This document shows, piece after piece, positions 22,270-46,183 of a stretch of DNA of 64,000 bases. The DNA comes from Thermoleophilia bacterium (lineage in GTDB: Bacteria; Actinomycetota; Thermoleophilia; Gaiellales; F1-60-MAGs149): contig JBAXNN010000001.1 of assembly GCA_037133755.1 (NCBI GenBank), positions 148,838-212,837 on the forward strand, given 5' to 3'. Within the stretch, counting starts at the first letter, position 1; each line of letters starts with the position of its first letter. Both the position numbers and the translations under genes were made by a program. Below the pieces are notes generated by a model, which was given only the letters and a program-made list of their open reading frames with translations, searched no databases and was not told where the DNA came from.

Positions 22270-23956
22270 CGCGCGCGACCTGCTCGGTGGCCGCTGGGCG
22301 ATCTCGCTGCGCGGCTGGCTGATCTTCTCCGCCGTCGTGCTGGTGATCGGGCCGCTCGGCCTCCGAGCCCAGCTGAAGGTGCCCACGCAGACGATCGTGG
22401 TGGTCGCACTCGCGGGGTGGCTGCTGATGACTCTCCTCTACGCGGCCGCCCACCTCACCGTCTTCCGCAACCGCCGCACCGCACCCGTGCACGTCGCGTG
22501 GCTGATCGTGCTCGGCCTCGCCGTCGGTATCGCCCGCACGGGCGTGGCGCTCGCCGTGCCCGCGAGCCGCGACGTGCTCGGCGGCGGCTGGGTGGCGGTG
22601 CTGACAGGCGCGCTGTGCTTCGTCCCGGTCTCCGTCCTCGTGGCGGTGCTGGTGACGTACCTGATCGCCGTCGTCGACTGGTACGCCGCCGAGCGTGCGC
22701 GACTGCTGCGCTTCGAGATCGACGCCGAGGCCGCGCGACTGCGCGCCGTCGGTGCGCTCAATGCCGCGCGCGCCGTCATCACCACACGAATCCAGACGGC
22801 GCTCGAAGACCAGCTGAGCGGACTCGAGCAGGCCGCCATGGCCGACGGTGCAGACGACCGGCTGTCCGACGCGCTGCTCGACACGGCCGCCGGCTACGTT
22901 CGGCCGGAGAGCCATCGGCTCTGGCAGGAGCGCGACCCCGCGCTGCGACGCGGCAGCCTCGCGGACCTCGAGCACGCGAGCCTTGCCGCGCCACTGCCGA
23001 TCGCGCTGCCCTTCGCGCTGTGGGCCGCGATCGTCATGCCCGCTGCGGCGGTGCACTTCGGCGGTCTCCGTTGGATCCCCAGTGCGCTGGCGTTGCTCGT
23101 CGCCATGGCGGTGCTCTATCCGCTGGGCCGGGCGGCTGTCCGCCGCTACGCCCCCGCTCCGCGTTACATGCGCGCGCGCCTGATCGCCCTCGTCGCCATG
23201 GCAACCGCGGGCGCCGCAAACGCCGGCACCGCCGCCCTGCTCGGCTCGCAGACCGCCACCCCGCTGCAGCAGGCGCTGCCGGCGGTCTTCATCGTCATCA
23301 TCACCGTCGTGGTCAGCTGGGCGCAGGCCGCCCTCCGCACGGAGGACGCGCGCTTGCGCTCCCTGCGGTCGCTCGCTGAGGAGGCCGACTTCGAGCGCCT
23401 CGCCCTCGAAGCCGCGACCGAGCAGATGCAGCGCGAGCTCGCGCTCTACCTCCACGGCACCGTGCAGGCCGGCCTCGTGGCCTCGGCCTACTCGATCCAG
23501 GACGCGGTGAACCGCGGCGACACCGTGGCGCTCGAGGCCGCGATCGCCGACGCCCGCGCCTCGATCGCGCGCGTCGGGCAGGACGCCGGCGAGCCGACGG
23601 TGCACGACCTCGTCTCCCTGCGCGCGGCGATCACCGAGCGCTGGGACGGCGCCATCGCCATCACGTGGGCTCTCCCGGCCACCGAGCCGGAACCCGCGAT
23701 CATCACCCGCATCGACAACGTGCTTCAGGAGTGCCTTGCCAACGCGTCGATCCACGGAGCCGCCAGCGAGGCGACCGTGCGCATCACGGTCGAGGACGAC
23801 TGCGCGATCGTGGAGGTGACGGACAACGGCACCGGTCCTGGCAATGGCAAGCCGGGCCTCGGCAGCGCCGTCCTCAACGAGGCGACCGGCGGCCAGTGGA
23901 CGATCGCGTCGGTGCCGACCGGTGGTGCGCAGGTGCGTGCCGTCGTGCCCAAGTGA
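22241..23956 (+). CDS. Membrane sensor histidine kinase, 8 predicted TM, HisKA_3-like DHp plus HATPase (HK1)
   Basis: The GTG at 22241 overlaps RR1 by 29 nt. There are four N-terminal TM segments, a ~110-aa helical soluble insert, and four more TM segments. Then come the H-box LALYLHGTVQAGL, the N-box ECLANASIHG, DNGTG and GLGSAVL. Confidence 0.8.
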   Translation: MVPSTGNRPSARDLLGGRWAISLRGWLIFSAVVLVIGPLGLRAQLKVPTQTIVVVALAGWLLMTLLYAAAHLTVFRNRRTAPVHVAWLIVLGLAVGIARTGVALAVPASRDVLGGGWVAVLTGALCFVPVSVLVAVLVTYLIAVVDWYAAERARLLRFEIDAEAARLRAVGALNAARAVITTRIQTALEDQLSGLEQAAMADGADDRLSDALLDTAAGYVRPESHRLWQERDPALRRGSLADLEHASLAAPLPIALPFALWAAIVMPAAAVHFGGLRWIPSALALLVAMAVLYPLGRAAVRRYAPAPRYMRARLIALVAMATAGAANAGTAALLGSQTATPLQQALPAVFIVIITVVVSWAQAALRTEDARLRSLRSLAEEADFERLALEAATEQMQRELALYLHGTVQAGLVASAYSIQDAVNRGDTVALEAAIADARASIARVGQDAGEPTVHDLVSLRAAITERWDGAIAITWALPATEPEPAIITRIDNVLQECLANASIHGAASEATVRITVEDDCAIVEVTDNGTGPGNGKPGLGSAVLNEATGGQWTIASVPTGGAQVRAVVPK

Positions 23957-23982
23957 CACGACGGCCGTCGTGAAGGCGACGC

Positions 23983-24012: not shown

Positions 24013-24024
24013 TGGTCGGTCCGT

Positions 24025-27000
24025 CTACCCGACCTTGATCTTGATCGTGCGCACGATGCTCGTGCCGTTCTTGCGCTTGACCTTCATCTTCACCTTGTAG
24101 GTGCCGGGCTTCGACGCCACGAGCTTGCCGTTGACGAGGGTCAGGCCAGCCGGCAGGGCGTCGGCCATGTACTCGACCTTCGACGTCGGGCGCACCCAGA
24201 TGTTCGCGCCGCGCAGGAGGTCTGCACCAGCAGCCGGCGTGGCGGCGTCCAGGATGGCCTCACCGCGCGTCTCACCGACGGTGATGCCCGGCGCCGGCGA
24301 GAACACCGGCGGCGTCTCGACAGACGGGGTCGTCGCAGGCGGTGTCACGACCGGCGAGGCCGGCGACGGCACACGAATCGACGACTCGCTCAGAATCGCC
24401 AGCGCGTCAATTCGGTTCGAACCTGTCACGCGCACCCGCAGGTACCGACCGGCATCCGCGGCAGCCACGGTGTAGCTGCTTGTCGCAGCACCACTGCCCG
24501 AAGCGGTCTCCCACGTCGAACCATCCGCCGACGACTGCCACGCGTAGGCGTAGTCCGTCGCGAAGTCCCACGTGCCTGTCGACGCGGTCAATGTCGAGCC
24601 GATCCCAATCGTGCCCGAGACGACCGGCACAGCCGACGACGTCGGCGCGGGAATCGCGACCTGCGCCGTTGCCGCCGAGAACGCCTCTGCTGAGGCAGCC
24701 GCATTGGTGGCCGTCACCTTCACGCGCAGGTACTTGTTGTCGTCGGTCAGATCCACGACGTACTCCGCCGTATCTCCACCCTCACCGAGCGCAGCCGTCC
24801 AGCCATCCTGACCATTGGACGACACCTGCCACTCATACGCGTACCCCGCGTCAGTATCCGGCGCATTCGACCACGTACCTTGCGAGGCCGTCAGCGTCTC
24901 GCCAACCGTCGCCGTGCCCGAATTCTGCGGCGCATCCGCACCGCCCGCATTCATCGGCGGAGCAGGCACCGTCACGACCGAGCTGTACGCCGCATCCGAC
25001 CACGTCGCGCCGTTATGGGCAATGACACGGACCTTCAGATCCTTGCCGCCATACGACTCCGGCACCACGTACTCCGCGGTCGTCCCCGAAGCACCCGTGG
25101 CAGCCGTCCACGTGTCAGCACCACGGTTCGACACCAGCCAGCGATACGTATAGCGCTCCGGCGTATTAGTCCACTGACCGCTCGTCGCACTCACCGTGTT
25201 GCCAATCCCGACGTCGCCCGTCAGCTCCGGAGCACTACCGAACAGGATGGGCAACGCACCAACCGGAGTGCCTGGAATCGCCGCGAGGCTGTAATCGAGA
25301 GAGTTCACGGTCGCTAGACGGGCAGAGCTGGTGCCATCCAGCGACGCGATACCGACGCCGCTGTTCGCACCGTCTTGGATGACGTAATAGATGCCATTCT
25401 GGTCCACACCGATCCCGCCGTTGCCGTTCCCGGCATTCGAGCCGGCAGGGTTCGCGATGAACGACGGCTGCACATCGGAGCCAGTGACATCAGCACGTCC
25501 GATGGCAGCGTTGTTGTAGTAGGTCCAGTACACGTGGTCGCCATCGACCGCAATGCCTGCGACCCCAGCCGGCAGGCTGTCGACGAAGGTCTGACCCGTA
25601 CCGCCGGTGATTGGTGCCCGGCCGATTGCGCTGCCTGAGCCGGGGCCTCGGTGGTAGTAGATGTAGTGGGCGTCGCGCGCGAAGAAATGCATCGCGGTGT
25701 ACGTATTCGTGTCGATGAAGGTCGGGTCGTGCTCACTGCCGTCGATCTTCATCCGATGGATATACGTGTGACCGTTCACCCCGTTGTCGGTGAAGTAGAT
25801 GTACTGATCGTCAATGAGCACCCCGAAGAAATTCTGCGCTCCAGCGCTATAGATGCTGGCCGGCGCCGTGCTGCCATTGGCGGGAGCCACATAGATGTCG
25901 CCGCTGCAGCCCCAGACGTTGGTCGTGCCGTTGGAGGAAAAGCCCCAACCACCCGGATTCGCGTATGGCTGCAACGACGCACCATCAGCCATCAGTGATG
26001 CGCTCTTGACGTAGAGATGAGACAGCGTCGATAGTGCCGCCACCAGCGTGCTAGCGCTCGAGGCCGTGGCCGTGTTGCCGTTGAAGGCTGTGACCGTCAC
26101 GCGTACGTACTGGCCCACGTCGCCGGTCTGCGTGACATACCCGGCCGTGGCATTGCCAGGGCCCGTCGCGCTCACCCACGTCCCGAGAGCACCCGACGGC
26201 GACAACTGCCACTGGTAGGTGTACGTGATGTTCCCTGTGGACTCCGTCCACGCACCAGGCGTCGCAATCCTGAAGAGGCCGTTGAGCCTCACCGTCGGCG
26301 CGGTGTCGTTCACCGGCGCCGGTGGTGCGGCCACCACGACAGTCGCCGCCGAGTAGGCGGTCGTCAGCAGACCACCGGCCGCCCCGGCACGCACCTTGAG
26401 CCGTACCGTCTTGCCGATATCGGAGATGCCAGGCGCATAGGTGGCCTGGCCATTCGTGCCGGGAGCGGCCGACCACGTTGCGCCGCTATCGCTTGAGACT
26501 TGCCACACGTAGAACACCTGGGACGGCGTGGCCGACCACGTGCCGTCACCCGCCGTCAGCGTCTGCCCCACCGCAGGTGTCCCGCTGATCGTGGGCTGCG
26601 CACTGTTCGTGAGCGCAGCACCCAGTGGCGGCAGCGGGGTCCCGCCGCTGACATGCACCCGCGAGCGATTCGTCAAGTAGGTCATATCGGCGATTCCCGT
26701 CACAAGCGTCGGGTTGACGTCGGTACCGTCGAGCTTTGCGCTGCCAATCTGCCCACCGCTCCAATCGCGTGCCGCCCAGTACAGCCGGCTGCCCGTGGCA
26801 GTGATACCCCAGACCGTGCGCGAGTTCTGCGTGTCCAGCCACGTGTTGTTCTGATCGGTACCGTCGAGCTTGGCACGGCCGATGCGGTTGGAGTAGCTGG
26901 TGCTGACCCAGTACAGATAGGTGCCATCGGTGGTGATGCCGCGAACATCGCCCGTGTTGTTGACGAGCACCTGCGACGAGCCACCATCGATCGCTGTGCG

Positions 27001-28623
27001 GTAGATGGCATTGCCACCAAACGAGTACAGCCAGTTGGCATCGCCGGTCATGGCATGCCCCCACAGCACGCCGCTGCCGTCGGCGAAGTGCCGGATGTTG
27101 TGCTGGCCATCCACGTCGACTCGACCGATCCAGGTGTTCACCGAGCAGTTGTAATACAGGTACTCATCTGTGACGTACAAACTGCCAAGGCCGTAGTAGT
27201 TGCCGTCGTTACCCCGAACCGTGGAGCAGAGGGTGTCAACGAGCTCCGTTGCCGAGCCGGTTCCGTCGATGCTCTTCTGACAGATCTTGTCTGCATCCTG
27301 ACGCCCATAGAACATGGTGCTGTTCCATCCGAACGCGTCTTCTCTCGAACATGTGGTGCTGATGCTGTCGTCGCGACCGCCGGGAATCGCCACGCCCGTG
27401 GTGTCATTGATCCATGTAGAGCCCACCGCAGTGTTACCCGCCCAGTAGAGCGTCGTCGAGGGCAGCGGCGTCAGCGCAGCGATCGTCTGCGCCGACGAGT
27501 GCGCCGACGTCAGCACGCCGCCCGTCGCGCCCGCGCGCACCAGCACGCGAAGCTGTTTGCCGACATCGCCGCGCTTGGGCGCGTAGCTGCTCGTTGTCGC
27601 GTCAGCTCCTGCTCCGTTGGACCACGTGGATCCGCTGTCTGCCGACACCTGCCACTGGTAGTACACATCGTCAGGCGTGGCCGACCACGTTCCCGCATCG
27701 GCAGTGACGATCTCGCCCACCTGCACCGTGCCTGTTATCGCAGGCGCCGCGGAGAGGGTGAGCGCCGGACCGAGGGGCACCTTCGGCGTGCCCCCGATGA
27801 TCGAGATCTGATGGTTCTGGCCCGTTGCCGTGATGCCGGTGATCAGCGTCGGCTGCACATTCGTGCCGTTGAGGTTCGCCTTGCCGACCGTGCCTGGGAA
27901 GCGCGACGTCCAGAAGATGCTGCTGCCGTCGACCTCGACTCCCCAGACCTGGGCGGTCGACTGCGTGTCGAGCCAGGTGTGGTCGATACCGGTGCCGTCG
28001 AGGTTGGCGCGGTGGATGAAGCGGGAGTCAAACCCCGACCAGTAGATGTGCTGGCCGTCGACCGCGATCCCGCGCATGTCGAACCCGGCGTTGACGTTGT
28101 ACGTCGGGTCGATAGGTCCGCCGCTCTCAGGATTGACCCGGCGAATGCCCGCATAGCTATACCCGATGTACAGCCAATTCGCATCCGTGGTGAGGCTGTA
28201 GGGATAGTTGCCGTCCACGCCCCACGCGAAGTGCGGGTTGTTGTGGGTGCCGTCGAGGTTCGCTCGGCCGATCCACTTGCTGCGGACGCACGTGTAGAAG
28301 ATGTGCGAAGCAGATGCGGTGAAGCCCGCGATGCCGCACTGCGTATTCGCAACTGTTCGGTTCACGTTGCCGCCCGTCAGGTCCTGGGTGCAGATGTAGT
28401 TGCCACTCGTGCCGTACAGCGTGGTGGCGTCGGCGAAGAACGCGTACTCCGCCAGGCAGTTGGTGCTGACCGAGAAGTTGACGTTCGTGCCGTCCGTCGA
28501 CGCGGTGCCGATGCTCGAGTCGGCGCCCCAGTACAGGGACCCTGCTCGCGCCTGAGCCGAGAAAGTGCCGAACAGCGCGACAAGGAAAATGGCGATGACG
28601 GTCGCCGCCGAAGGCTTCTTCAT
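24025..28623 (-). CDS. Giant secreted protein: three YWTD/LDL-receptor-class-B-like beta-propeller regions alternating with Ig-like domains, plus a conserved C-terminal domain
   Basis: The ATG at 28623 gives MKKPSAATVIAIFLVALFGTFSAQARA, for 1532 aa. Recurrent blade motifs include LYWG/IYWS/IFWT/LYWA and IGRANLDGT/IGRAKLDGT/IGSAKLDGT. There are repeated ~90-aa modules of the type G.WS..P....Y.WQ.S.D.G..W......Y......D.G..LRV.V.A. Confidence 0.85.
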   Translation of the reverse strand: MKKPSAATVIAIFLVALFGTFSAQARAGSLYWGADSSIGTASTDGTNVNFSVSTNCLAEYAFFADATTLYGTSGNYICTQDLTGGNVNRTVANTQCGIAGFTASASHIFYTCVRSKWIGRANLDGTHNNPHFAWGVDGNYPYSLTTDANWLYIGYSYAGIRRVNPESGGPIDPTYNVNAGFDMRGIAVDGQHIYWSGFDSRFIHRANLDGTGIDHTWLDTQSTAQVWGVEVDGSSIFWTSRFPGTVGKANLNGTNVQPTLITGITATGQNHQISIIGGTPKVPLGPALTLSAAPAITGTVQVGEIVTADAGTWSATPDDVYYQWQVSADSGSTWSNGAGADATTSSYAPKRGDVGKQLRVLVRAGATGGVLTSAHSSAQTIAALTPLPSTTLYWAGNTAVGSTWINDTTGVAIPGGRDDSISTTCSREDAFGWNSTMFYGRQDADKICQKSIDGTGSATELVDTLCSTVRGNDGNYYGLGSLYVTDEYLYYNCSVNTWIGRVDVDGQHNIRHFADGSGVLWGHAMTGDANWLYSFGGNAIYRTAIDGGSSQVLVNNTGDVRGITTDGTYLYWVSTSYSNRIGRAKLDGTDQNNTWLDTQNSRTVWGITATGSRLYWAARDWSGGQIGSAKLDGTDVNPTLVTGIADMTYLTNRSRVHVSGGTPLPPLGAALTNSAQPTISGTPAVGQTLTAGDGTWSATPSQVFYVWQVSSDSGATWSAAPGTNGQATYAPGISDIGKTVRLKVRAGAAGGLLTTAYSAATVVVAAPPAPVNDTAPTVRLNGLFRIATPGAWTESTGNITYTYQWQLSPSGALGTWVSATGPGNATAGYVTQTGDVGQYVRVTVTAFNGNTATASSASTLVAALSTLSHLYVKSASLMADGASLQPYANPGGWGFSSNGTTNVWGCSGDIYVAPANGSTAPASIYSAGAQNFFGVLIDDQYIYFTDNGVNGHTYIHRMKIDGSEHDPTFIDTNTYTAMHFFARDAHYIYYHRGPGSGSAIGRAPITGGTGQTFVDSLPAGVAGIAVDGDHVYWTYYNNAAIGRADVTGSDVQPSFIANPAGSNAGNGNGGIGVDQNGIYYVIQDGANSGVGIASLDGTSSARLATVNSLDYSLAAIPGTPVGALPILFGSAPELTGDVGIGNTVSATSGQWTNTPERYTYRWLVSNRGADTWTAATGASGTTAEYVVPESYGGKDLKVRVIAHNGATWSDAAYSSVVTVPAPPMNAGGADAPQNSGTATVGETLTASQGTWSNAPDTDAGYAYEWQVSSNGQDGWTAALGEGGDTAEYVVDLTDDNKYLRVKVTATNAAASAEAFSAATAQVAIPAPTSSAVPVVSGTIGIGSTLTASTGTWDFATDYAYAWQSSADGSTWETASGSGAATSSYTVAAADAGRYLRVRVTGSNRIDALAILSESSIRVPSPASPVVTPPATTPSVETPPVFSPAPGITVGETRGEAILDAATPAAGADLLRGANIWVRPTSKVEYMADALPAGLTLVNGKLVASKPGTYKVKMKVKRKNGTSIVRTIKIKVG

Positions 28624-28663
28624 GCAAACCAACGTACGCGCGCGCTATAAGCCGCACGCGAAG

Positions 28664-28715
28664 GTGTCGTACTTACCGCCCCACTACCAACCGCAAGTGT
28701 CGTACTTCCCGCCCC
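28664..28715. promoter_or_regulatory. Cassette-2-type direct repeats upstream of the giant gene
   Basis: gtgtcgtacttaccgcccc (28664-28682) and gtgtcgtacttcccgcccc (28697-28715), period 33 bp. They are part of a 125-nt block (28591-28715) that matches 30767-30891 with 8 mismatches. Confidence 0.6.
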
Positions 28716-28792
28716 TCGGCGCGGCTCCAGGGCGTAGGCGCGCCGCGGTGCCGCGCTACGGGTAGCGCGTCCCGGAGGTCGCCCGCGCCGGC

Positions 28793-30799
28793 TCAGCCGG
28801 TGACGCCCGGCAGAGCCGGCGGGGGCGACACCACGACGGTGCGTGTCGTCGTGCGCGCAGTGCCACCGGTCGGCGTGAAGGTCGTCGTGACGACCACGGC
28901 ACGGCGCGTGGCGACGGCCTCGAGGTGGCAGATCAGCGTCACGGTCGTCGCGCGGGTCACCGTCTCGGTCGCAGTGCAGGCCGCACGCCGCGCCGATGAC
29001 ACCCGGCGATACACGCCACGCTGCGTGACACGACCAGCCGAAGGGAGGCGGATGCTGGTGATGATCGACGTACCGACGGTCCGCGACGACAGAGCACGAA
29101 ACCGATTCGACGGCGGCGTCGGAGCGGCAGCGGTCGCCGTCGGCGTGGATGCGGTGGTCGCCGCCGCCGCGCCGGGAGTCGTCGGAGCCGCGCTATCGAC
29201 GGTGAACGTCGCCGTCGCACTGGTCGCACCGGTGATCGTCACGCTGCACGTCGTCGAGGTACCCGTACAGGCTCCGCTCCAGCCCGCGAACGTCGAACCG
29301 CTGGCCGGCGTGGCCGTGAGCGTCACCGTGCTCGACAGCGTGAACGAGGCACTGCAGGTTGCCCCGCAGCTGATCCCGGCCAGTGACGAGACCACCGAGC
29401 CACTGCCGCTACCGGCAGTGGAAACGATGAGCAAGGCGCTCGTCGGGGCAGCGCGGGTGACGGCCTGGATCAACCCCGAGCCCACTTCGCCCCAGACAAC
29501 GGTCGTGGCTCCGTCAGGCGCGACGGCGATCTGAGGGTACCGGGCGTCCAGTCCCGCAGCGGAGAGGTCCGCAGGGGGATCAGCCACAGGATCGGGCCAG
29601 CTACCGCCTGCAGGGCGCGTTGCGGCCTGGACGGTGTGCGCCGAGTAGACATCTTCGTGCGCCCACACGACCGTTGTTGACCCGTCAAACGCGATCGCGA
29701 TCTGGGGGTTTTGGGCATCCTCAAGCGTCACGTAGAGCTCGGACGATGTGCCCCAGGTGTTCGACCCGGCAGGGCGGGTAGCAGCCTGGATGGAGTTGAC
29801 CGCGAAGCCGTCAGTGTTGTGCCACACGACCGTTGCGGACCCATCGGACGCGATCGCGAGCTTGGGGTATCGGGCATCCTCACCCATCGCAGAGAGGACG
29901 GCCGGTATGCCCCAGGTGTTCGACCCGGCGGGGCGGGTGGCAGCCTGAATGGAGTTAACCGAGAGGCCGTCTTGGCGCTGCCACACGACCGTGGCGGTTC
30001 CGTCGGATGCGATCGCGATCTGGGGGTTCTGCGCATCCTCACCCGTCGCGGAGAGGACGGCCGGTGCGCCCCAGGTGTTCGATCCGGCAGGGCGGGTGGC
30101 AGCCTGGATGGAGTACCCCGAGGGGCCCTCGGAGTGCTGCCACACGACCGTTGCGGACCCATCGGACGCGATTGCGATCTCGGAGTAGAAGGAGATCTCG
30201 CCCACCACGGAGAGGTTCACGGGAGTGTCAACCGCAGGGTCGGGCCAGCTGCCCCCTGCGGGGCGCGTTGCGGCCTGGATGACGTAGCCGCCGGAGCCGT
30301 CGTCGGCGTACCACACGGCAGTTGCGGCGCCGTCGGCCGCAATAGCGATCTGGGGTAGATAGGCAAACGTACTCACCATGGAGATTTCCACGGGAGGACC
30401 CCAGGTGTTCGAGCCGGCGGGGCGGGTAGCAGCACAGATGCGGTCGTCGCTTGCCCAGATGGCCGTGGCCGATCCGTCGGCCGCAATAGCGATCTGGGGG
30501 TATGTGTTGTTCTGCCCCGTCACCGAGAGGACGTCCAACGTGCCCCACGTATTCGATCCGGCAGGGCGCGTGGCGGCCTGGATGATGTAGTTCGTGCCGT
30601 CGAAGTGGGACCAGACTGCCGTGGCGGCTCCATCGGGCGCGACGGCGATCTGCTGACTGCTATTCCCAGTCGTCGCGGCAACGTCAACGGGCGCACCCCA
30701 CGTGACTGCCTCGGCCGACGACGACGACGCGAGGACGACGGCCATCGACACGGCGAATGCGAGTGCGGCGATGACGGTCGCCGCCGAAGGCTTCTTCAT
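28793..30799 (-). CDS. Secreted repeat protein (7-8 units of ~48-53 aa, beta-propeller-like), Ig-like GWSGAC-type domain, PAT linker, Cys-containing C-terminal domain ending in VTG
   Basis: The ATG at 30799 gives MKKPSAATVIAALAFAVSMAVVLASSSSAEA. The unit is IQAATRPAGSNTWG.P..LS..G..A..PQIAIA.DG.ATVVW. The three central units are 159-bp DNA repeats (ccccaggtgt at 29751, 29910 and 30069). Confidence 0.8.
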   Translation of the reverse strand: MKKPSAATVIAALAFAVSMAVVLASSSSAEAVTWGAPVDVAATTGNSSQQIAVAPDGAATAVWSHFDGTNYIIQAATRPAGSNTWGTLDVLSVTGQNNTYPQIAIAADGSATAIWASDDRICAATRPAGSNTWGPPVEISMVSTFAYLPQIAIAADGAATAVWYADDGSGGYVIQAATRPAGGSWPDPAVDTPVNLSVVGEISFYSEIAIASDGSATVVWQHSEGPSGYSIQAATRPAGSNTWGAPAVLSATGEDAQNPQIAIASDGTATVVWQRQDGLSVNSIQAATRPAGSNTWGIPAVLSAMGEDARYPKLAIASDGSATVVWHNTDGFAVNSIQAATRPAGSNTWGTSSELYVTLEDAQNPQIAIAFDGSTTVVWAHEDVYSAHTVQAATRPAGGSWPDPVADPPADLSAAGLDARYPQIAVAPDGATTVVWGEVGSGLIQAVTRAAPTSALLIVSTAGSGSGSVVSSLAGISCGATCSASFTLSSTVTLTATPASGSTFAGWSGACTGTSTTCSVTITGATSATATFTVDSAAPTTPGAAAATTASTPTATAAAPTPPSNRFRALSSRTVGTSIITSIRLPSAGRVTQRGVYRRVSSARRAACTATETVTRATTVTLICHLEAVATRRAVVVTTTFTPTGGTARTTTRTVVVSPPPALPGVTG

Positions 30800-30839
30800 G
30801 CGCGCCAACGTACGCGCGCGCTATAAGCCGCACGCGAAG

Positions 30840-30891
30840 GTGTCGTACTTCCCGCCCCACCAGCAGCCGCAAGTGTCGTACTTACCGCCCC
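30840..30891. promoter_or_regulatory. Cassette-2 direct repeats (candidate RR2 operator)
   Basis: gtgtcgtacttcccgcccc (30840-30858) and gtgtcgtacttaccgcccc (30873-30891) are 18/19 identical with a 33-bp period. Confidence 0.6.
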
Positions 30892-30913
30892 CCGTCGTGC
30901 TCTGGGTTGGTCG

Positions 30914-30919
30914 TAGACT
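30914..30919 (+). promoter_or_regulatory. Candidate -10 box TAGACT for RR2
   Basis: The hexamer end is 10 nt before the ATG at 30929, the same geometry as the other three cassettes. Confidence 0.5.
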
Positions 30920-30928
30920 GCTCGCATG

Positions 30929-31576
30929 ATGCTGCGCGTGCTGCTGATCGAGGACGAGGACCTCCTTCGCCTCGCCCTTGCCTCCATGCTGCCCGACGAG
31001 ACGATCGAGGTCGTCGGGGCGTTCGCGGATGGCGCGAGCGCCGTGGAGGCCGCGAAGACGACCGATTTCGACGTGCTCGTCACCGACCTCGACCTGGGGA
31101 ACGAGCAGGCGCCGAACGGCATCGTTGTCGCCAACGTCCTGCGTCGCACAAAGCCCGACATCGGCATCGTGCTGCTGACGTCGTATGCGGATCCGCGGCT
31201 CGTCGGCGCCAAGCTCAACCAAGTGCCCGACCGCACTGAGTACATCCGCAAGCAGTCGGTGCGGGACATGGACGCGCTGCGCGCCGCGATTCGCCGCGCG
31301 GCATACGCCCACACCGACGTGATGACGCCGCTGCCCGAGGTCGAATTGACCGATGGGCAGATCGAGACGATGCGACTCGTCGCGCAAGGGCTCACCAACA
31401 GCGAGATCGCGCGCCAGCGCGTCGTGTCGGAGCGCACCGTCGAGAAGTCGATCCAGCGGATCGCACAGGTGCTCGGCGCGACCGGGGACTCGACGACCAA
31501 CACGCGCGTGCTGCTCGTGCGCGCGTACTTCGAGCTCGCCGGGGGCAAGGGTGCCCAAGACAAGCTCCCGTCCTAG
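30929..31576 (+). CDS. Response regulator, receiver plus LuxR/NarL-type HTH (RR2)
   Basis: MLRVLLIEDEDLL..DVLVTDLDL..LTDGQIETMRLVAQGLTNSEIARQRVVSERTVEKSIQRIAQVLG. I prefer the second ATG (30929) over 30926, by alignment with the paralogs and the -10 spacing. Confidence 0.9.
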   Translation: MLRVLLIEDEDLLRLALASMLPDETIEVVGAFADGASAVEAAKTTDFDVLVTDLDLGNEQAPNGIVVANVLRRTKPDIGIVLLTSYADPRLVGAKLNQVPDRTEYIRKQSVRDMDALRAAIRRAAYAHTDVMTPLPEVELTDGQIETMRLVAQGLTNSEIARQRVVSERTVEKSIQRIAQVLGATGDSTTNTRVLLVRAYFELAGGKGAQDKLPS

Positions 31577-33260
31577 CGCGCGCGAGCTGCTGGGTGGCCG
31601 CTGGGCGATCTCGGTCCGCGGCTGGCTGATCCTCTCTGTCGTCACCGTGATCAGCGCGATCGGGATCCGAGCGCAGTTGGGCGTCTCGACGCCGGCCGCG
31701 GCAGCGTTCACGCTCGCGTTCTGGCTGCTGGCGACAGCCATGTTCGTGGCTGCGCACCTGACCATCTTCCGTAACCGCCGCACCAAGCCCGTCCACATCG
31801 CGTGGCTGATCGCGTTCGCCATCAGCATTGGGATCGTGCGCGTGGCCGTGGCGTTTGCCGTCCCCGAGATCCGTGCCGCGCTGGGCGATGGCTGGCCGGG
31901 CGCATTCACAGCCGTCGTCTCCTTCGTCCCGGGCACAGTGCTGCTCGTCGTGCTGGTCGCGTACCTCCTCGCCGTGACCGACTGGTACGCCTCCGAGCGC
32001 ATACGGCTTCTGCACTTCGAGATCGACGCCGAAGCCGCGCGCCTGCGTGCCATCGGCGCGCTCAATGCCGCGCGCTCGGTGATCACCACCCGCATTCAAA
32101 CAGCGCTCGAGGGCCAGCTGAGCGAACTCGAACGCGCCGCCAAGGTCGATGACGCCGACGTGCGCCTCTCCGACGTGCTCCTCGACACCGCCGTCGGGTA
32201 CGTGCGCCCCGAGAGCCACCGGCTCTGGCAGGAGCGCGATCCCGCCCTGCGCCGCGGCACCCTTGCCGACGTCGAACGAGCGAGCCTCTCCGCCCCCCTG
32301 CCGATCGCGCTGCCCTTCGCGCTGTGGGCGGTCGTCATCGTCCCCGTGGCCATGGTGCGCTTCGGCGCCGGACACGGAATGTTGAGCGCACTCGCCGTGC
32401 TGACCGCCATGGCCGTGCTCTATCCGCTCGGTCGCGCTGCCGTCCGCCGCTACACGCCCGCACCACGCTATATCCGCGCGCGCCTGCTCACGCTCGTGTT
32501 CATGGCGGGCGCCGCCCTCGCCGGACCAGGCACGACGCTGCTGGGTGGGGCGAACACCACGCTGCAGCTGCAGCAGATCATGGCCGCCTTGATGATCGTC
32601 GTCGCGACGATCGCCGTCAGCTGGGCCCAGGCCGCACTCCGCGCGCAGGATGCGCGTCTGCGCTCCCTGCGCTCCCATGCCGAGGAGGCCGACTTCGAGC
32701 GCCTCGCGCTCGAGGCCGCGACCGAGCAGATGCAGCGCGAGCTCGCGCTCTATCTCCACGGCACGGTGCAGGCCGGCCTCGTGGCGTCGGCGTACTCGAT
32801 CCAGGACGCCGCCAATCGCGGCGACTCCGAGGCGCTCGAGACGGCGATCGCCGACGCCCGCTCCGCCATCGCGCAGCTGGGCAATGACGACGAGCGCGCG
32901 GCGATGGTCGACTTCGCCGAGCTGTCGCAGCGGTTTGACGCGAAGTGGCGCGGCATGATCGCGATCACCTGGGAGCTGCCAGGCGAGGCGACGACCGACG
33001 TGGCGCTGCAGCGCGTCAGCGACGTGGTGCAGGAGTGCCTCGCCAACGCCACGATCCACGGTGCCGCGACGGAGGCGACCGTGCGCGTCGTCGTCGAGGA
33101 CGACAGCGCGATCGTCGAGGTCACCGACGACGGCACCGGTGTCGGTGACGGCAAGCCCGGCCTCGGCAGCGCCGTCCTCAACGAGGCGACGGGCGGCCGA
33201 TGGACGATCGCGTCGATGCCGACCGGTGGCGCGCAGGTGCGCGCCGTCGTGCCGGTCTAG
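31551..33260 (+). CDS. Membrane sensor histidine kinase paralog (HK2)
   Basis: The GTG at 31551 (VPKTSSRPSARELLGGRWAIS) aligns with the starts of the other three kinases and overlaps RR2 by 26 nt. The longer track ORF from 31353 runs through RR2 in another frame. Architecture and H/N/G boxes match HK1. Confidence 0.8.
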   Translation: MPKTSSRPSARELLGGRWAISVRGWLILSVVTVISAIGIRAQLGVSTPAAAAFTLAFWLLATAMFVAAHLTIFRNRRTKPVHIAWLIAFAISIGIVRVAVAFAVPEIRAALGDGWPGAFTAVVSFVPGTVLLVVLVAYLLAVTDWYASERIRLLHFEIDAEAARLRAIGALNAARSVITTRIQTALEGQLSELERAAKVDDADVRLSDVLLDTAVGYVRPESHRLWQERDPALRRGTLADVERASLSAPLPIALPFALWAVVIVPVAMVRFGAGHGMLSALAVLTAMAVLYPLGRAAVRRYTPAPRYIRARLLTLVFMAGAALAGPGTTLLGGANTTLQLQQIMAALMIVVATIAVSWAQAALRAQDARLRSLRSHAEEADFERLALEAATEQMQRELALYLHGTVQAGLVASAYSIQDAANRGDSEALETAIADARSAIAQLGNDDERAAMVDFAELSQRFDAKWRGMIAITWELPGEATTDVALQRVSDVVQECLANATIHGAATEATVRVVVEDDSAIVEVTDDGTGVGDGKPGLGSAVLNEATGGRWTIASMPTGGAQVRAVVPV

Positions 33261-35425
33261 CCGACCTTGATCTTGATCGTCCGCAGCTTGGTCGTACCGT
33301 TGGCGCGCTTGACCTTCACCTGCACCTTGTAGGTACCGGGTACCGTCGCGACGAGCTTGCCATTGACGACCTTGAGGCCCGCCGGCAACGCATCGGGCAC
33401 GTACTCGACCTTGGACGTCGAGCGGACCCAGATGTTCGCACCGCGGAGGAGATCCGCGCCTGCAGCCGGCACGGCTGCGGCTAGATTCGCCTCACCACGC
33501 GTCTCGCCGACGGTGATGCCCGGCGCCGGCGAGAACACCTGGGGTGTCTCCGGCGAAGGCTCTGCCACCGGCGTGACGACTGGTGCGACCGGCGCAGCCG
33601 GTGTCGGCACGCGAATCGACGAAGCGCTCGTGGATTCCTGCGAGTCGACGCGATTCGTACCCGTTACGCGCACACGCAGGTACCGGCCCGCGTCCGCTGC
33701 GGCGACGATGTAGGTGTTCGTCGCGGCACCCGTGCCGGGAGCCGTCTGCCACGTTGAGCCGTCCACAGACGATTCCCATGCGTAGGCGTAACCCGTGGCG
33801 AAATCCCACGTGCCCGTCGAGGCCGTCAGCGTGGAGCCGATCGTGACCGTGCCCGTGATCGCCGGCACCTCCGTCGGCGACGGCGGGAGGATGTCGACAA
33901 GCGTCTGCGTGTACGCCGTCGCGACGTTTGAGCCGCCGTCGTTCGTTGCCGTCACCTGCGCCCGCAGGTACTTGTTGTCGTCGGTCATGTCCACGTCGTA
34001 CGTCGCCGAATCCGCGCCGTCACCGAGCGCGGGCTCCCACGTATCCGGAGCCCCGGAGGCCGACACCTGCCACGCATACGCGTACGCCGTTGGCTGCTGC
34101 TGCGATGCCCATGAACCTGTATCGACCGACAGCGTTTCGCCGACCTGGACCGTGCCCGTCAGCTGTGGCGTGACGCTGCTGACCGGCGCCACCGGCAGCA
34201 CCGCATTGGTCGCCATCGAGTACCCGACCGTGGCGCCGCCGTCGTTGGTCGCCGTCACCTTGACGCGCAGGAACTGGGCGTACTCGGCGGCAGCCGGGTA
34301 GTAGCTCGCCGTCGCGGTGCCCGTGCCCGCACCTGTCACCCAGCCGGACTCGCCGTTCGGCGATACCTGCCAGAGGTAGGTATACCCGCTGGCGTCGGCC
34401 GGCGGATTCATCCACGTCCCGGTCCCTGCCGAGAGCACCACATCAACCTTGGGCGTGCCGGTGATCGCCGGCGCCACCGTGTTGATCGGCGACGGTAGCG
34501 GCAGCAGCTTGGCCGTACCGCCAACGACCTTCAGCTGCGCGTGCTCGTTGCTCGAGGAGATACCAGCGCCGGTGATCAGACTCGAGTTCGCGTTGGCACC
34601 GCTGAGATCGGCGCGGCCGATCGCACCGCCGCCACTACGCCGCGCCCAGTAGATCGAGCTGCCGGTCACCGTCACACCGAACGTGTCCGAGCCGGAGCTG
34701 AGCCACGAAGCATTCGAGCCGGTGCCATTGAGTTTCGCCCGCCCGATGGTCGTACCGTTGTTGATGGCCCAGTAGACGTGCCGGCCATCGACGTCGATGC
34801 TGCGCACATCGCCGACACACAGGCTGAAGTTCGGATCGACGCCACTCCCGTCGATGTGGTAACGCTGCATGCAGCTGTACACGCCCGTGTTCCCCACGTA
34901 CAGCCAGTCATCACCCGCCGCGATCGCAGTCGTGTAACTGTCGTTCGGACCTGCGGGCGTCGCCGTGAAGTTCAAGATCGGATTCGTGCCCGCGACATCC
35001 ACCCTGCCGAGCCGGCTCGTGTTCATGCACGCCCAGTAGACGTATAGATCCGTCGCGTAGATGCCGCCGACCCCCAGGCCCCCACACCCGGTGGCGACGA
35101 GCGTCGACGAGCTGCCCGTGCCATCGAGCCGCATCTGGCAGATGTCGCTGTTGGAACGGCTGTAGTACATGGTGCTGTTCGCAGACCAGCTCCAGTCGCC
35201 GTTGCAGCCGGTGCTGACCGCATTGTTCGGGCTGCCCGATAGCACGCCCGTGGCGTCATCGATCTCCTGCGTGCCGACCGACGAGTTGCCCGCCCAGTAG
35301 ATGGAGGCCGCCGATGCCTGTGCGACTGAGCATGTGAGCAGTCCGCACAGAGCGAGGACGCCCACGAGGACAGGGCGGTGAAGCCGTGGGCGGAGAACGG
35401 CAGAGAACGACAAGAAACGCGGCAT
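33257..35425 (-). CDS. Secreted YWTD-propeller/Ig-like mosaic protein (paralog of the giant protein) with the same C-terminal domain
   Basis: 722 aa with signal-like MPRFLSFSAVLRPRLHRPVLVGVLALCGLLTCSVAQASA. Contains IYWAGNSS, VYWAC, IGRAKLNGT and IGRADLSG blades and four Ig-like modules. The last ~95 aa align with the giant protein C-terminus (PQVFSPAPGITVGETRGEA...IKIKVG). Confidence 0.85.
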   Translation of the reverse strand: MPRFLSFSAVLRPRLHRPVLVGVLALCGLLTCSVAQASAASIYWAGNSSVGTQEIDDATGVLSGSPNNAVSTGCNGDWSWSANSTMYYSRSNSDICQMRLDGTGSSSTLVATGCGGLGVGGIYATDLYVYWACMNTSRLGRVDVAGTNPILNFTATPAGPNDSYTTAIAAGDDWLYVGNTGVYSCMQRYHIDGSGVDPNFSLCVGDVRSIDVDGRHVYWAINNGTTIGRAKLNGTGSNASWLSSGSDTFGVTVTGSSIYWARRSGGGAIGRADLSGANANSSLITGAGISSSNEHAQLKVVGGTAKLLPLPSPINTVAPAITGTPKVDVVLSAGTGTWMNPPADASGYTYLWQVSPNGESGWVTGAGTGTATASYYPAAAEYAQFLRVKVTATNDGGATVGYSMATNAVLPVAPVSSVTPQLTGTVQVGETLSVDTGSWASQQQPTAYAYAWQVSASGAPDTWEPALGDGADSATYDVDMTDDNKYLRAQVTATNDGGSNVATAYTQTLVDILPPSPTEVPAITGTVTIGSTLTASTGTWDFATGYAYAWESSVDGSTWQTAPGTGAATNTYIVAAADAGRYLRVRVTGTNRVDSQESTSASSIRVPTPAAPVAPVVTPVAEPSPETPQVFSPAPGITVGETRGEANLAAAVPAAGADLLRGANIWVRSTSKVEYVPDALPAGLKVVNGKLVATVPGTYKVQVKVKRANGTTKLRTIKIKVG

Positions 35426-36189: not shown

Positions 36190-37873
36190 CACCCGCGAAC
36201 TGCTTGGCGGGCGCTGGGCGATCTCGCTGCGCGGCTGGGTGATCAGTTCGGTTCTCTTGCTGATCGCGCCGCTGCTCTCGTTCCGTGCTCTGCCGCACAC
36301 AACACCCGGGGCGCAACTGGAAATCGGGGTCGCGCAATGGGCGCTGATCTCGGTGCTCATGCTCGTCTTTCACCTCACCGTGTTCCGCCGCAGACGGCTT
36401 GCGCCGGTGGCGATCGGTGTGGTGATCGCCTTCGCCTCGGTGCTGGGCCTCGCACGTGTGGTCGCGGTCTACGTCGTTCAGCGTGCCCAGCCCAGTCCGC
36501 CACTGGCGGCGATTGACCTGGTCCACGTCGCCATCGCGATGGTGCCCGCCACGATCGTGATCTTCCTGATGATCATCTACCTGCTCGCCATCGAGGACTG
36601 GTACGCGACAGAGCGCGAGCGCCTACTGCGCTTCGAGGTCGACGCCGAGGCCGCCCGCCTGCGTGCGCTCGGCGCGCTCGACGCCACGCGCGCCGTCGTC
36701 ACCGCGCGCATCCGCGAGGATCTCGAGAGCCAGCTCGCGGGCCTCGACTCGTCCGGCGATGCACGGCTGCAGTTGTCCGACACCGTGCTCGACGCCGCTG
36801 CCACATACGTCCGCCCCGAGAGCCATGCGCTGTGGACGCAGCGGGAGACACCGTCGCGCCGCAGCAGCTTCCGCGAACTCGAGCGCGCCAGCCTCTCCGA
36901 CCCGCTGCCGCTGCTCATGCCCTTCGTGCTGTGGGCCGTGAGCGCCGGTCCGTTCGCAGTCATCCGCACCGATATCACCCGCACCTCGCTCGCGGTCGTC
37001 GCCGTACTCGTCGGCATGCTGATCGCGTACCCGCTTGGCCGTCGAGCGATCCGCCGCTACGCACCCGCGCCGCACTTCGGCCGCGCCCGTGCTCTCGCCG
37101 TCGCCGCGATGCTGATCGCCGGTCTGCCGACCATTGCGCTCAATCGCTTCAATCCGCGCTTCGAGACGATCAACGGCCTGCTTCTGGCGGTCGTGAGCGT
37201 CACGATGATCGTCCTGTTCACGATCATCGTCAGCTGGGCGCTGGCGGGCCAGCGCGTGCAGAGCGAGCGCCTGCGCGCCCTACGGTCACAGGCGGAGGAG
37301 GCGGAGTTTCAGCGCCTCGCCCTCGAAGCAGCCACCGAGCAGATGCAGCGCGACCTCGCGCTCTACCTCCACGGCACCGTGCAGGCCGGCCTGGTCGCCT
37401 CGGCCTACGCCATGCAAGACGCGGCTTCCCGCGGCGATGAGGTTGCGCTCGAGCACGCGATCGCCGACGCTCGTGCTGCCACTGCTCGGGTGAGCGACGA
37501 GCCTCCCACGCTCGCCGGCCCCGACCTCGCCTCGGTGCGCGCCGAGATCGACGAGACCTGGCAGGGCATGCTCACAATCCGCTGGATCCTGCCCGACGTG
37601 GAGCTCGCCGTGCCCGTCGTCGATCGGCTCGGCAACGTCGTGCGCGAGTGCCTCTCCAACGCATCGATCCACGGCGCCGCAACCGAGGCGACCGTGCGGA
37701 TCGTCGTCGAAGACGATTGCGTGATCGTAGAGGTCACCGATAACGGCAGCGGCCTCGGCGACGGCAAGCCCGGCCTCGGCAGCGCCGTGCTCAACGAGGC
37801 GACGCGCAGCCAATGGTCGATCGCGACGGTACCGACCGGTGGTGCGCAGGTGCGCGCCGTCGTGCCGGTCTGA
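36164..37873 (+). CDS. Membrane sensor histidine kinase paralog (HK3)
   Basis: The GTG at 36164 overlaps RR3 by 26 nt. It has the same TM/insert/TM layout, the H-box LALYLHGTVQAGL, and the C-terminal HATPase (ECLSNASIHG, DNGSG, GLGSAVL). Confidence 0.8.
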   Translation: MPTTLSRPSTRELLGGRWAISLRGWVISSVLLLIAPLLSFRALPHTTPGAQLEIGVAQWALISVLMLVFHLTVFRRRRLAPVAIGVVIAFASVLGLARVVAVYVVQRAQPSPPLAAIDLVHVAIAMVPATIVIFLMIIYLLAIEDWYATERERLLRFEVDAEAARLRALGALDATRAVVTARIREDLESQLAGLDSSGDARLQLSDTVLDAAATYVRPESHALWTQRETPSRRSSFRELERASLSDPLPLLMPFVLWAVSAGPFAVIRTDITRTSLAVVAVLVGMLIAYPLGRRAIRRYAPAPHFGRARALAVAAMLIAGLPTIALNRFNPRFETINGLLLAVVSVTMIVLFTIIVSWALAGQRVQSERLRALRSQAEEAEFQRLALEAATEQMQRDLALYLHGTVQAGLVASAYAMQDAASRGDEVALEHAIADARAATARVSDEPPTLAGPDLASVRAEIDETWQGMLTIRWILPDVELAVPVVDRLGNVVRECLSNASIHGAATEATVRIVVEDDCVIVEVTDNGSGLGDGKPGLGSAVLNEATRSQWSIATVPTGGAQVRAVVPV

Positions 37874-37900
37874 CTACGGCGATTGCCGGGCCAGGACGCG

Positions 37901-37943: not shown

Positions 37944-38828
37944 TTACGACCGGTCGTACGTGAACGGACCGTGGAGCGGGCTGGGGGTACTCACCGGCGT
38001 GAGCTGCAGCACATCCATGTCCGCATTGGCCCTATTTGCCCACATCCACCTGCCGCTAGCGCTGTTCGTGCAGACGACCGGATCGCTCAGATGGGATGGG
38101 TCTGAGTCGTATCCGGACACCGGGTGGCCAGCGACGTGATGGACCGTCGTGCCGCTCACTCTGTAACTCTGACGATCATTGTAGTCAGCCCGAAGACCGT
38201 CGCCGACACGCTCGGCGGGGAATTCCCCGGAGGCGGTCTTTTGGACGTACGCGGGACCGGAGCAGTCATCAGAGAGAAAGAAAATGACCTCCCGAACAAT
38301 TCTGAACCCCTGCGAGCCATCCGAAACGACAAGCAACGTGTCGCCATTCACGGTGCGGTAGAAGGAGCTGACCGCGCCGGTCCAAGGATTGGCATCGGGT
38401 GCCGGTAGGGGCAACACACCGCTGACCACATTGCCATCCGCATCGCGGATCGTTACGCCACCGCCACCACCGGAGCTGCTGCCGGCCGGACCGGCAGGGC
38501 CCTGAGCGCCGGTCGCACCCTTGGGGCCGGCGGGACCCGCCGGACCCTGCGCGCCGTCCTTGCCGTCGAGCCCGTTCATCGCGCCCTTGCTGAGGTCGGA
38601 GACCTGGATGGAACCGGCCTTGATGTCGTCGCCGCCGATCGCGCCGTTGGCGATGTCGTCCGAGCTGACGGCACCATCCTTGATGTCGGACGACTGCACC
38701 GCACCGTCCTTGATCTGCGCGGAGCCGACCGAGTTGGGCGCCAGGGCGACGGCGGCGTAGCCCGTCCCTCCCAGCGCAACGAATAGTGCGAGTGTGGCGA
38801 TAACGGTCGCCGCCGAAGGCTTCTTCAT
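37944..38828 (-). CDS. Secreted collagen-like repeat protein (CLP2)
   Basis: 294 aa. The first 53 aa are almost identical to CLP1 (2 substitutions). The G-X-Y tract is GKDGAQGPAGPAGPKGATGAQGPAGPAG (DNA about 38475-38567). The C-terminal domain is divergent. Confidence 0.8.
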   Translation of the reverse strand: MKKPSAATVIATLALFVALGGTGYAAVALAPNSVGSAQIKDGAVQSSDIKDGAVSSDDIANGAIGGDDIKAGSIQVSDLSKGAMNGLDGKDGAQGPAGPAGPKGATGAQGPAGPAGSSSGGGGGVTIRDADGNVVSGVLPLPAPDANPWTGAVSSFYRTVNGDTLLVVSDGSQGFRIVREVIFFLSDDCSGPAYVQKTASGEFPAERVGDGLRADYNDRQSYRVSGTTVHHVAGHPVSGYDSDPSHLSDPVVCTNSASGRWMWANRANADMDVLQLTPVSTPSPLHGPFTYDRS

Positions 38829-38868: not shown

Positions 38869-38918
38869 TGTGAGGATTCCCGTAGGTGGTTTCCCACAAC
38901 TGTCGTGTTTACCGTAGA
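38869..38918. promoter_or_regulatory. Cassette-4 repeats (one good site plus a degenerate upstream copy)
   Basis: tgtcgtgtttaccgtaga lies at 38901-38918. The copy 32 bp upstream (38869-38886) conserves only the 3' half (t.ccgtag). Confidence 0.4.
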
Positions 38919-46105: not shown

Positions 46106-46183
46106 TGCGCTTGATGCTACCCGGGTGCGAGCGGGATCGCAGTGGGGGACGCAGACGACGGGTATCATGGGCTGCCGGTAGCA

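Follow-up and report, generated by a model that had tools for sequence, protein, structure and literature searches.

A conserved pair of direct repeats as the probable operator of a NarL/FixJ-type response regulator in a freshwater actinobacterial lineage

Introduction

Which protein reads a pair of 19-nucleotide (nt) direct repeats lying between the gene for a 668-amino-acid (aa) secreted protein and that for the response regulator (RR) RR2, and which genes do these repeats serve? The question arises in a 64,000-nt stretch of contig JBAXNN010000001.1 from a Thermoleophilia bacterium (the window; coordinates without a locus name are positions in it), where four cassettes each bring together an RR, a histidine kinase (HK) and secreted proteins. 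We favour the view that the repeats are the operator of the adjacent NarL/FixJ-type RR2, that RR2 activates secreted-protein genes through them and that it probably activates the RR2-HK2 operon too. That RR2 is the binding protein, its stoichiometry, activation rather than repression and the positions of the transcription start sites (TSSs) are what we infer from the sequence.

Two direct repeats precede RR2

The repeats and the elements that follow them are listed here.

30840-30858, plus strand: repeat A of the RR2-proximal putative operator pair, GTGTCGTACTTCCCGCCCC, with core TGTCGTACTTCCCGCC at 30841-30856; nearest the promoter of the 668-aa gene
30873-30891, plus strand: repeat B of the same pair, GTGTCGTACTTACCGCCCC, with core TGTCGTACTTACCGCC at 30874-30889; nearest the RR2 promoter
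30892-30913, plus strand: gap of 22 nt; its length (21-22 nt) is kept across the RR2 clade and its sequence is not, except GGTTsGTCG (30905-30913)
30914-30919, plus strand: TAGACT, the predicted -10 element (TANNNT type) of the RR2-HK2 operon promoter, invariant in position at ~25 loci

A sequence check found gtgtcgtacttcccgcccc at 30840-30858 and gtgtcgtacttaccgcccc at 30873-30891, 33 nt apart from start to start, confirming the pair and the 33-bp spacing reported in an initial annotation of this region. The consensus of both repeats is GTGTCGTACTT[C/A]CCGCCCC. Their occurrence is not random: allowing up to three mismatches, four copies were observed in the window where 0.05 were expected, and none of 100 shuffles reached four. 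With at most two mismatches, a scan of the window returned only these four sites, two sites in cassette 3 and one isolated site at 6172. TAGACT was also where it had been annotated, and behaves as a conserved TANNNT -10 element 9 nt from the RR start at all related loci. The distance between this hexamer and the nearest repeat is 22 nt in cassette 2, to which RR2 belongs, and 11 nt in cassettes 1, 3 and 4.

It had also been proposed that the 5' half of the site is common to cassettes 3 and 4. This is true of cassette 3, as TGTCGTAC is common to cassettes 2 and 3 only, but not of cassette 4, which carries TGTCGTGT and whose distal copy (38869-38885), TGTGAGGAT, retains the 3' half only. We noted that in several cassettes (cassette 4 of the window at 38869-38885, and the upstream regions of loci L010, L011 and L006) the two repeats agree in the 3' half (CCCGTAG, for instance) but the distal one differs from the proximal one in the 5' half, as in TGTGAGGAT versus TGTCGTGTT or TGTAGGGGTT versus TGTCGTACTT. 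The part that is strictly shared within the pair in those cassettes is the 3' half.

The pair is duplicated upstream of a second secreted-protein gene

A second pair of repeats, absent from the initial annotation, lies at 28664-28715.

28664-28682, plus strand: repeat A' of the second pair, GTGTCGTACTTACCGCCCC, upstream of the gene for a 1532-aa secreted protein and within a 131-nt duplication
28697-28715, plus strand: repeat B' of the second pair, GTGTCGTACTTCCCGCCCC, within the same duplication

The duplicated module (28591-28721, matching 30767-30897 with 92% identity) contains the first ~11 signal-peptide codons (MKKPSAATV...), the leaderless upstream region, the -10 element and both repeats. 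Its plus-strand neighbour is only the 3' end of the 668-aa gene, with no RR gene downstream. As the same pair precedes the 1532-aa gene without a downstream RR, it is not solely an element of the RR2 promoter. Moreover, the distance that is strictly fixed, at 28 nt, runs to the -10 element of the minus-strand secreted-protein gene, and the repeats would therefore be at least as much a target-gene operator as an autoregulatory one. The description of 30840-30919 as a control region of RR2 thus stands in that a conserved cis-element adjoins a regulator with REC and GerE domains and that the type of element tracks the recognition helix; its framing as an RR2 promoter was incomplete. We predict that the 1532-aa gene is a second RR2 target.

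Second pairs were also found before a second minus-strand gene at L002 (270-317), L003 (1536-1583) and the cassette-1-type locus L009 (1866-1918), and the 28-nt distance to TANNNT holds at the second pairs of the window and of all three of these loci. In L003, as in the window, the two modules are more alike than either is to its orthologues, and this similarity within a genome points to gene conversion or to recent duplication of the promoter unit as a whole.

Four target genes of the window, and others in further metagenome-assembled genomes (MAGs), begin with the same 26 nt of coding sequence (ATGAAGAARCCTTCGGCGGCGACCGT, MKKPSAATV), except at a single synonymous site.

21479-21504, 28598-28623, 30774-30799 and 38803-38828, minus strand: the 26-nt MKKPSAATV start in the window target genes
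L002 203-228, L009 1800-1825 and 2850-2875, and L021 3796-3821: the same 26-nt start outside the window

The RR genes linked to these identical starts are only ~75% identical in DNA. Possible causes are a constraint acting on leaderless mRNAs at their 5' end, or conversion. Between the 668-aa and 1532-aa genes no terminator was apparent, as the fold of 28716-28795 does not rise above shuffles (z -0.41) and the only terminator-like match falls inside coding sequence; the two genes may also be co-transcribed.

Spacing is fixed across related loci

To place the pair in a wider context, ~25 loci from Gaiellales/Thermoleophilia MAGs and lake metagenomes were examined (11 in GTDB genomes, 7 in metagenomes and more through exact-protein look-ups). 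The GTDB loci come from MAGs labelled mostly Gaiellales, Thermoleophilia or 'actinobacterium', with other labels on a few, and several are from lakes or reservoirs. The RR family comprises ~75 protein clusters at ≥62% identity, all with generic names only. The repeat architecture is absent from a more distant relative (L099, 54% identity), and the module is confined to the RR family at ≥62% identity.

It can be seen that every locus with enough upstream DNA has the same layout. From left to right this is the CAT of the target gene, 6-7 nt, a minus-strand TANNNT, 28 nt, TGT, 32-33 nt, TGT, 29 nt (39-40 nt in the RR2 clade), TAGACT, 9 nt and the RR start codon. The target-side TANNNT at 28 nt was present at 14 of the 15 loci that could be scored for both target -10 and distal repeat. 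The inner distance between the two -10 hexamers is 89 nt in 11 of 12 scorable standard cassettes, that is, those outside the RR2 clade, and 88 nt in the remaining one (L009); the module as a whole measures ~89 bp, or ~100 bp in the RR2 clade. These spacings are fixed among RRs that are only 62-86% identical.

The RR2 clade consists, by identity to RR2, of the window, L101/L102 (97%), L001 (86%), L002 (81%), L003 and L096 (79%), L016/L097 (77%) and L098 (76%), and all members carry the recognition helix ERTVEKSIQRI. The longer gap to the -10 element, correctly reported for cassette 2, is a trait of this whole clade: the distance from TGT to the -10 is 39-40 nt in 8/8 RR2-clade loci and 29 nt in 16/16 others. 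The additional 10-11 nt correspond to one helical turn, and the insert is conserved in length but not in sequence. Repeat number is variable, with one in L002, two at most loci and three in L016/L097.

The initial annotation suggested that a weak third element (cgtcgtgct, 30893-30901) may fill the 22 nt. Read as a degenerate RR2 site, it would keep the effective distance to the -10 as in the other cassettes. This string does match TGTCGTACT at 7/9 positions. However, it is found only in the window and in the 97%-identical strain; L001, L098, L003, L096, L002 and L016 have unrelated sequence there although the gap length is kept. It also lacks the CCGCC half and is out of phase, beginning 19-20 nt past repeat B instead of 32-33. 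Conservation within the gap is instead confined to GGTTsGTCG at 30905-30913. We consider a third site at this position very doubtful. In the sequence directly 5' of TAGACT (GGTTGGTCG, 30905-30919 region) the RR2 clade keeps GGTTsGTCG and standard cassettes have GTGACC. The GGTTsGTCG context gives rise to a GTCGTA string that matches the repeat core exactly and runs into the RR2 -10. It could be a low-affinity half-site, or simply a lineage-specific -10 context.

We then aligned six RR2-type pairs from four genomes (two from the window, one from L001, two from L003 and one from L002; twelve repeats). All 28 positions of the core TGTCGTACT-NN-CCGCC, counted over both repeats, are invariant, whereas identity is 52-73% at the NN positions, in the spacer between the repeats and in the flanks. 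Across the family, 42 distinct repeats have the invariant skeleton T1 G2 T3. G5... T9. C11 C12 C13 G14, and the other positions sort by cassette type.

These alignments bear on the possibility that the repeats are non-functional relics of local duplication, or iteron-like or recombination sites. The region does lie within a 131-nt duplicated segment, and the cassettes are tandem paralogues. Relics, however, would not account for cores that are invariant while neighbouring spacers diverge, for a spacing that is fixed across RRs 62-86% identical, or for paired repeats that evolve in concert. As for iterons or recombination sites, no Rep, recombinase or transposase is encoded nearby and the flanks are chromosomal housekeeping genes. 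This explanation is hardly credible to us. Two further readings were rejected. An RNA element is not indicated, as neither strand of 30800-30925 folds better than shuffled sequence (z +1.98 and -0.30) and Rfam gave no match in 20-42 kb. Coding constraint is unlikely, since the indels among orthologues (1, 10-11 and 30-33 nt) are mostly not multiples of three.

Operator class follows the recognition helix of the linked regulator

The regulator encoded next to the pair is as follows.

30926-31576, plus strand: RR2, with REC and GerE/LuxR helix-turn-helix (HTH) domains (NarL/FixJ class); recognition helix ERTVEKSIQRI

Both domains scored above their Pfam cutoffs (Response_reg 52.9 bits, cutoff 30.2; GerE 35.1 bits, cutoff 23.5). 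The domain scan returned GerE as the output domain and no match to the winged-helix model Trans_reg_C. The nearest relatives of solved structure are VraR, DevR, RcsB, DesR and NarL (E ~1e-10 to 1e-7), with VraR the best (6e-11), DevR at 4.9e-10 over a full-length alignment and NarL at 2.5e-7. Against NCBIfam no equivalog cutoff was reached, the best score being MadR with 59 bits (cutoff 300). We noted that RR2 opens with ATG ATG (30926 and 30929). ATG 30929 aligns with the MLRVLL start of the paralogues, and the first ATG lies exactly 6 nt past TAGACT, an ideal leaderless geometry. The double start is also present in the L016/L097 orthologue (L097 525-530); elsewhere in the family a lone ATG or GTG stands 9 nt past the hexamer.

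We found that at ~25 loci the operator class matches the recognition-helix class of the linked RR one to one.

Helix TVEKSIQ: operator TGTCGTAC..CCGCC
Helix AVEQ[ST][IV]N: operator TGTCGT..CCGTA
Helix AVEMSLY: operator TGTAGAG..CCGTA
Helix GAVEVSLR: operator TGTATAGG..CCCTA

At variable positions the two repeats of a pair are 0.84 identical, against 0.57-0.61 for same-position repeats compared between helix classes, and in 193 of 206 comparisons a distal repeat resembled the proximal repeat of its own locus more closely than the distal repeat of another locus. Such concerted change is what would be expected if one locus-specific protein reads both repeats. Base-contacting residues have been identified in DevR (K179, K182 and N183; PMC5861037) and in NarL (K188, V189 and K192; PMC10853779). 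In a HMMER alignment to DevR, the variable helix residues of our family coincide with or directly adjoin these positions.

An alternative is that another regulator binds the repeats, either a global factor or a paralogous RR such as RR3. The 5' half TGTCGTACT is indeed identical in cassette 3. However, operator class follows the helix class of the linked RR across the ~25 loci, including second copies ~2 kb away, and the match survives in L101/L102, where cassettes are reordered and targets exchanged. Nor would one global factor account for 3' halves that are specific to a cassette. We therefore regard a different regulator as improbable and RR2 itself as the likely ligand.

Predicted promoters and the direction of regulation

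No canonical sigma-70 -35/-10 pair was found in 28.5-31.1 kb, and as there is none the promoters on both sides look activator-dependent. What is present upstream of the target genes is a -10-like hexamer.

30807-30812, minus strand: TACGTT, predicted -10 of the 668-aa gene, 7 nt before ATG 30799 and 28 nt from the TGT of repeat A
28631-28636, minus strand: TACGTT, predicted -10 of the 1532-aa gene, 7 nt before ATG 28623 and 28 nt from the TGT of repeat A'

On the other side, TAGACT is followed after 6 nt by ATG 30926 and after 9 nt by ATG 30929. The arrangement is that of leaderless -10-only promoters, with TANNNT 6-9 nt before the start codons and neither a Shine-Dalgarno sequence nor a -35 element. 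In Mycobacterium tuberculosis, TANNNT -10 elements are centred 7-12 bp upstream of the TSS, have no -35 partner and often give leaderless mRNAs (PMC3898074). As the hexamers are 6-9 nt from the starts and there is no Shine-Dalgarno sequence, the RR2-HK2 and target transcripts are predicted to be leaderless or near-leaderless.

With a TSS 7 nt past TAGACT (30926), the 16-nt cores would be centred at -44.5 and -77.5 of the RR2 promoter. For the target promoters, with a predicted TSS 7-8 nt past the hexamer, the cores would lie at about -49 (-48.5 to -49.5) and -82. In standard cassettes the RR-side site would be centred at ~-33.5, over the -35 region, and would cover ~-41 to -23 relative to the predicted TSS.

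These positions can be read as those of an activator, which we prefer, or of a repressor. In the latter case the repeats would still be RR2 operators, and RR2 would repress one or both flanking promoters, for example its own. In the 16 standard cassettes the proximal site would occupy ~-41 to -23 of the RR promoter, where repressors typically bind. TANNNT promoters of actinobacteria can be active with neither a -35 element nor an activator (PMC3898074), and the half-site-like GTCGTA string over the RR2 -10 is kept in the RR2-clade loci examined, except L016 and its near-duplicate L097. Against this, the sites at RR2-clade (~-44.5) and target (-48.5 to -49.5) promoters would lie upstream of the polymerase core footprint, which are classic activator positions. 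They match those from which NarL activates transcription, namely -44.5 and -77.5 at ogt and, with a single site, -43.5 at yeaR (PMC10853779). The fixed 28-nt distance and the 32-33-bp phasing also suggest a stereospecific contact with polymerase. We consider repression unlikely, though still a serious contender.

With RR2 as an activator, the following sequence of events can be proposed. HK2 would phosphorylate RR2, and RR2~P would bind both phased sites on one face of the helix, probably as one dimer per repeat and cooperatively. The sites, 33 bp (~three helical turns) apart, would sit in the middle of a compact bidirectional promoter region in which both flanking promoters have a TANNNT -10 only. 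Bound RR2 would recruit RNA polymerase leftward to the 668-aa gene and, from the duplicated module at 28664-28715, likewise activate the 1532-aa gene. RR2 would probably also act rightward on the RR2-HK2 operon, giving autoregulation; in its clade the one extra helical turn would shift the nearest site from ~-33.5, over the -35 region, to ~-44.5. Cooperative binding of two dimers is probable by analogy with DevR, which activates the divergent tgs1-Rv3131 promoters from two phased tandem boxes (PMC3177182).

Several points weigh against this proposal. In standard cassettes, the RR-side site over the -35 (~-33.5) plausibly suits repression as well as activation. The co-variation of helix and operator is correlative, as the RR gene is physically linked and there are only ~5 clades. 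The 5' half of the operator does not differ from that of cassette 3, which could permit binding by a non-cognate paralogue and hence cross-talk between cassettes. The matrix of 42 repeats, inspected by eye, has no self-complementary register of the kind expected for a 7-2-7 or an 18-20-bp palindrome. The sites are asymmetric, unlike the palindromic NarL and Dev sites, and are therefore no obvious fit for a GerE dimer. Finally, all loci come from uncultured organisms. A search for half-sites within the 19-mer found direct half-sites, CGTAC...CGTAT, 9 nt apart in cassette-3-type sites and none in RR2-type sites.

Comparison with known systems

By analogy, the RR2 operator is closest to NarL at ogt in geometry and to DevR at a divergent actinobacterial promoter in biology. 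Like NarL at Escherichia coli ogt, RR2 is a REC plus LuxR/GerE HTH regulator with two putative sites that are spaced by 33 bp and would share one helical face upstream of a weak promoter, and its cores too would be centred at -44.5 and -77.5, given the predicted TSS. However, NarL sites are 7-2-7 inverted heptamers whereas RR2 sites are asymmetric direct units of 16-19 bp that differ in sequence. The similarity of RR2 itself to NarL is remote (E 2.5e-7), and the promoters at its locus are divergent and apparently leaderless.

With DevR (DosR) of M. tuberculosis, RR2 shares membership of the NarL family in an actinobacterium and, by prediction, at least two tandem phased intergenic sites, divergent transcription and -10-only TANNNT promoters (PMC3177182, PMC3898074). 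Dev boxes, however, are palindromes of 18-20 bp placed 21 bp apart (-42.5 and -63.5), and RR2 sites are non-palindromic and 32-33 bp apart. Compared with the Dev-box pattern (a palindrome with G5 and C7 in each half-site and ~21-bp spacing), TGTCGTACTNNCCGCC is unrelated and non-palindromic, with 33-bp spacing. The DosR regulon is also large, and that of RR2 appears local, covering neighbouring genes only.

Envelope-stress regulators of the VraR/LiaR type include the best solved-structure match, have an intramembrane-sensing kinase, HK2 likewise being largely membrane-embedded, and, as predicted for RR2, a small, local and autoregulated regulon. They differ in that the RR2 targets are secreted repeat, collagen-like or propeller proteins and in that no LiaF/VraT-like partner is present. 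As in the pho box of PhoB/OmpR regulators, the units are head-to-tail direct repeats, and in paralogous cassettes the proximal unit replaces the -35 region. PhoB and OmpR, however, are winged-helix proteins with an 11-bp box periodicity, and RR2 has a GerE HTH and a periodicity of 32-33 bp. The RR2 operator is thus set apart by its direct non-palindromic sites, by the 32-33-bp periodicity and by flanking genes that both appear to be leaderless.

A search of one paper library on Gaiellales two-component systems and response regulators returned nothing relevant. The protein family and the motif are undescribed, while the kind of element is well known, and current concepts of two-component regulation are unchanged by the finding. 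For an uncharacterised two-component system of an uncultured freshwater actinobacterial lineage, it supplies a concrete operator that can be tested (two copies of TGTCGTACT-NN-CCGCC at 33-bp spacing) and a predicted regulon of two genes. The at least five helix/operator pairs on an otherwise identical promoter scaffold form a natural series, which could help to decode the DNA specificity of LuxR/GerE-type RRs that use asymmetric direct repeats. High-GC hosts might likewise be provided with orthogonal parts from this series. In evolutionary terms, the conserved spacing variant of one helical turn and the exchange of secreted cargo between strains are modest but clear-cut observations.

A broader and decidedly tentative reading, which we think possible but would not bet on, is that the four cassettes form a modular 'chassis-plus-cargo' system confined to freshwater Gaiellales/Thermoleophilia. 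A constant chassis of a membrane kinase, a NarL-type regulator and a rigid bidirectional leaderless promoter module would drive interchangeable, unrelated secreted surface proteins. Helix and operator would have co-diverged into at least five orthogonal channels, and the one-turn insertion would have switched the RR2 clade from autorepression to a NarL-like autoactivation from -44.5.

Neighbouring genes and other features of the window

The kinase and the two predicted target genes of cassette 2 are listed below.

31551-33260, plus strand: HK2, a predicted polytopic membrane histidine kinase of 569 aa; its GTG start overlaps the RR2 stop; LHGTVQ as putative H-box
28793-30799, minus strand: the 668-aa secreted protein, divergent from RR2, with a Sec-type signal peptide, eight ~53-aa PQIAIA/PDIAV-like repeats and an InlB-B-repeat-like domain
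24025-28623, minus strand: the 1532-aa secreted protein, with signal peptide MKKPSAATV..., a DUF5050 beta-propeller-like region and immunoglobulin (Ig)-like repeats

HK2 has multiple hydrophobic segments and an H-box-like string, LALYLHGTVQAG. In the domain scan HATPase_c scored 24.5 bits, just below the cutoff of 26.4, and no match to the HisKA_3 model was reported. Among the four window kinases, the catalytic C-terminus is 81-90% identical in DNA and part of the membrane/sensor region only 61-76%, a pattern consistent with input diversification. The segments compared were:

22886-23185, 32190-32489, 36797-37096 and 40200-40499: membrane/sensor region
23701-23958, 33005-33262, 37618-37875 and 41024-41281: catalytic C-terminus

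The cassette targets have Sec-type signal peptides and are repeat, propeller, Ig-like or collagen-like proteins. In the 668-aa gene, 29492-30652 consists of eight tandem repeats of ~159 nt (53 aa; PQIAIA...IQAATRPAGSNTWG) with weak similarity to BNR_2 and to PDIAV lipoproteins. Ig-like repeats of ~303 nt are common to the 1532-aa and 722-aa genes (24556-27752 and 33794-34479), which also have a C-terminal domain in common (24023-24318 and 33255-33550, 83% identical).

The cargo differs even between strains with 97%-identical RR2. At L101 (5056-8332) and L102 (2865-6141), where RR2 is 97% identical, the same operator and 22-nt gap are paired with a single 271-aa collagen-like secreted protein, which stands in place of the 668-aa and 1532-aa pair of the window (24025-33260). 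At L003 (1-4648) the target is an unrelated 723-aa protein. The order of the cassettes also differs in L101, where it is C4-C2-C3.

The flanks of the window hold ordinary chromosomal housekeeping genes. Two 215-aa open reading frames considered as possible RRs, at 19250 and 54546, were out-of-frame artefacts. Elsewhere in the window, and not linked to the cassettes, are genes for a 1050-aa LytS-type sensor with His_kinase and HATPase_c domains (44705-47857, minus strand) and for a secreted protein with BspA-type leucine-rich repeats and fibronectin-III domains (62091-63875, plus strand).

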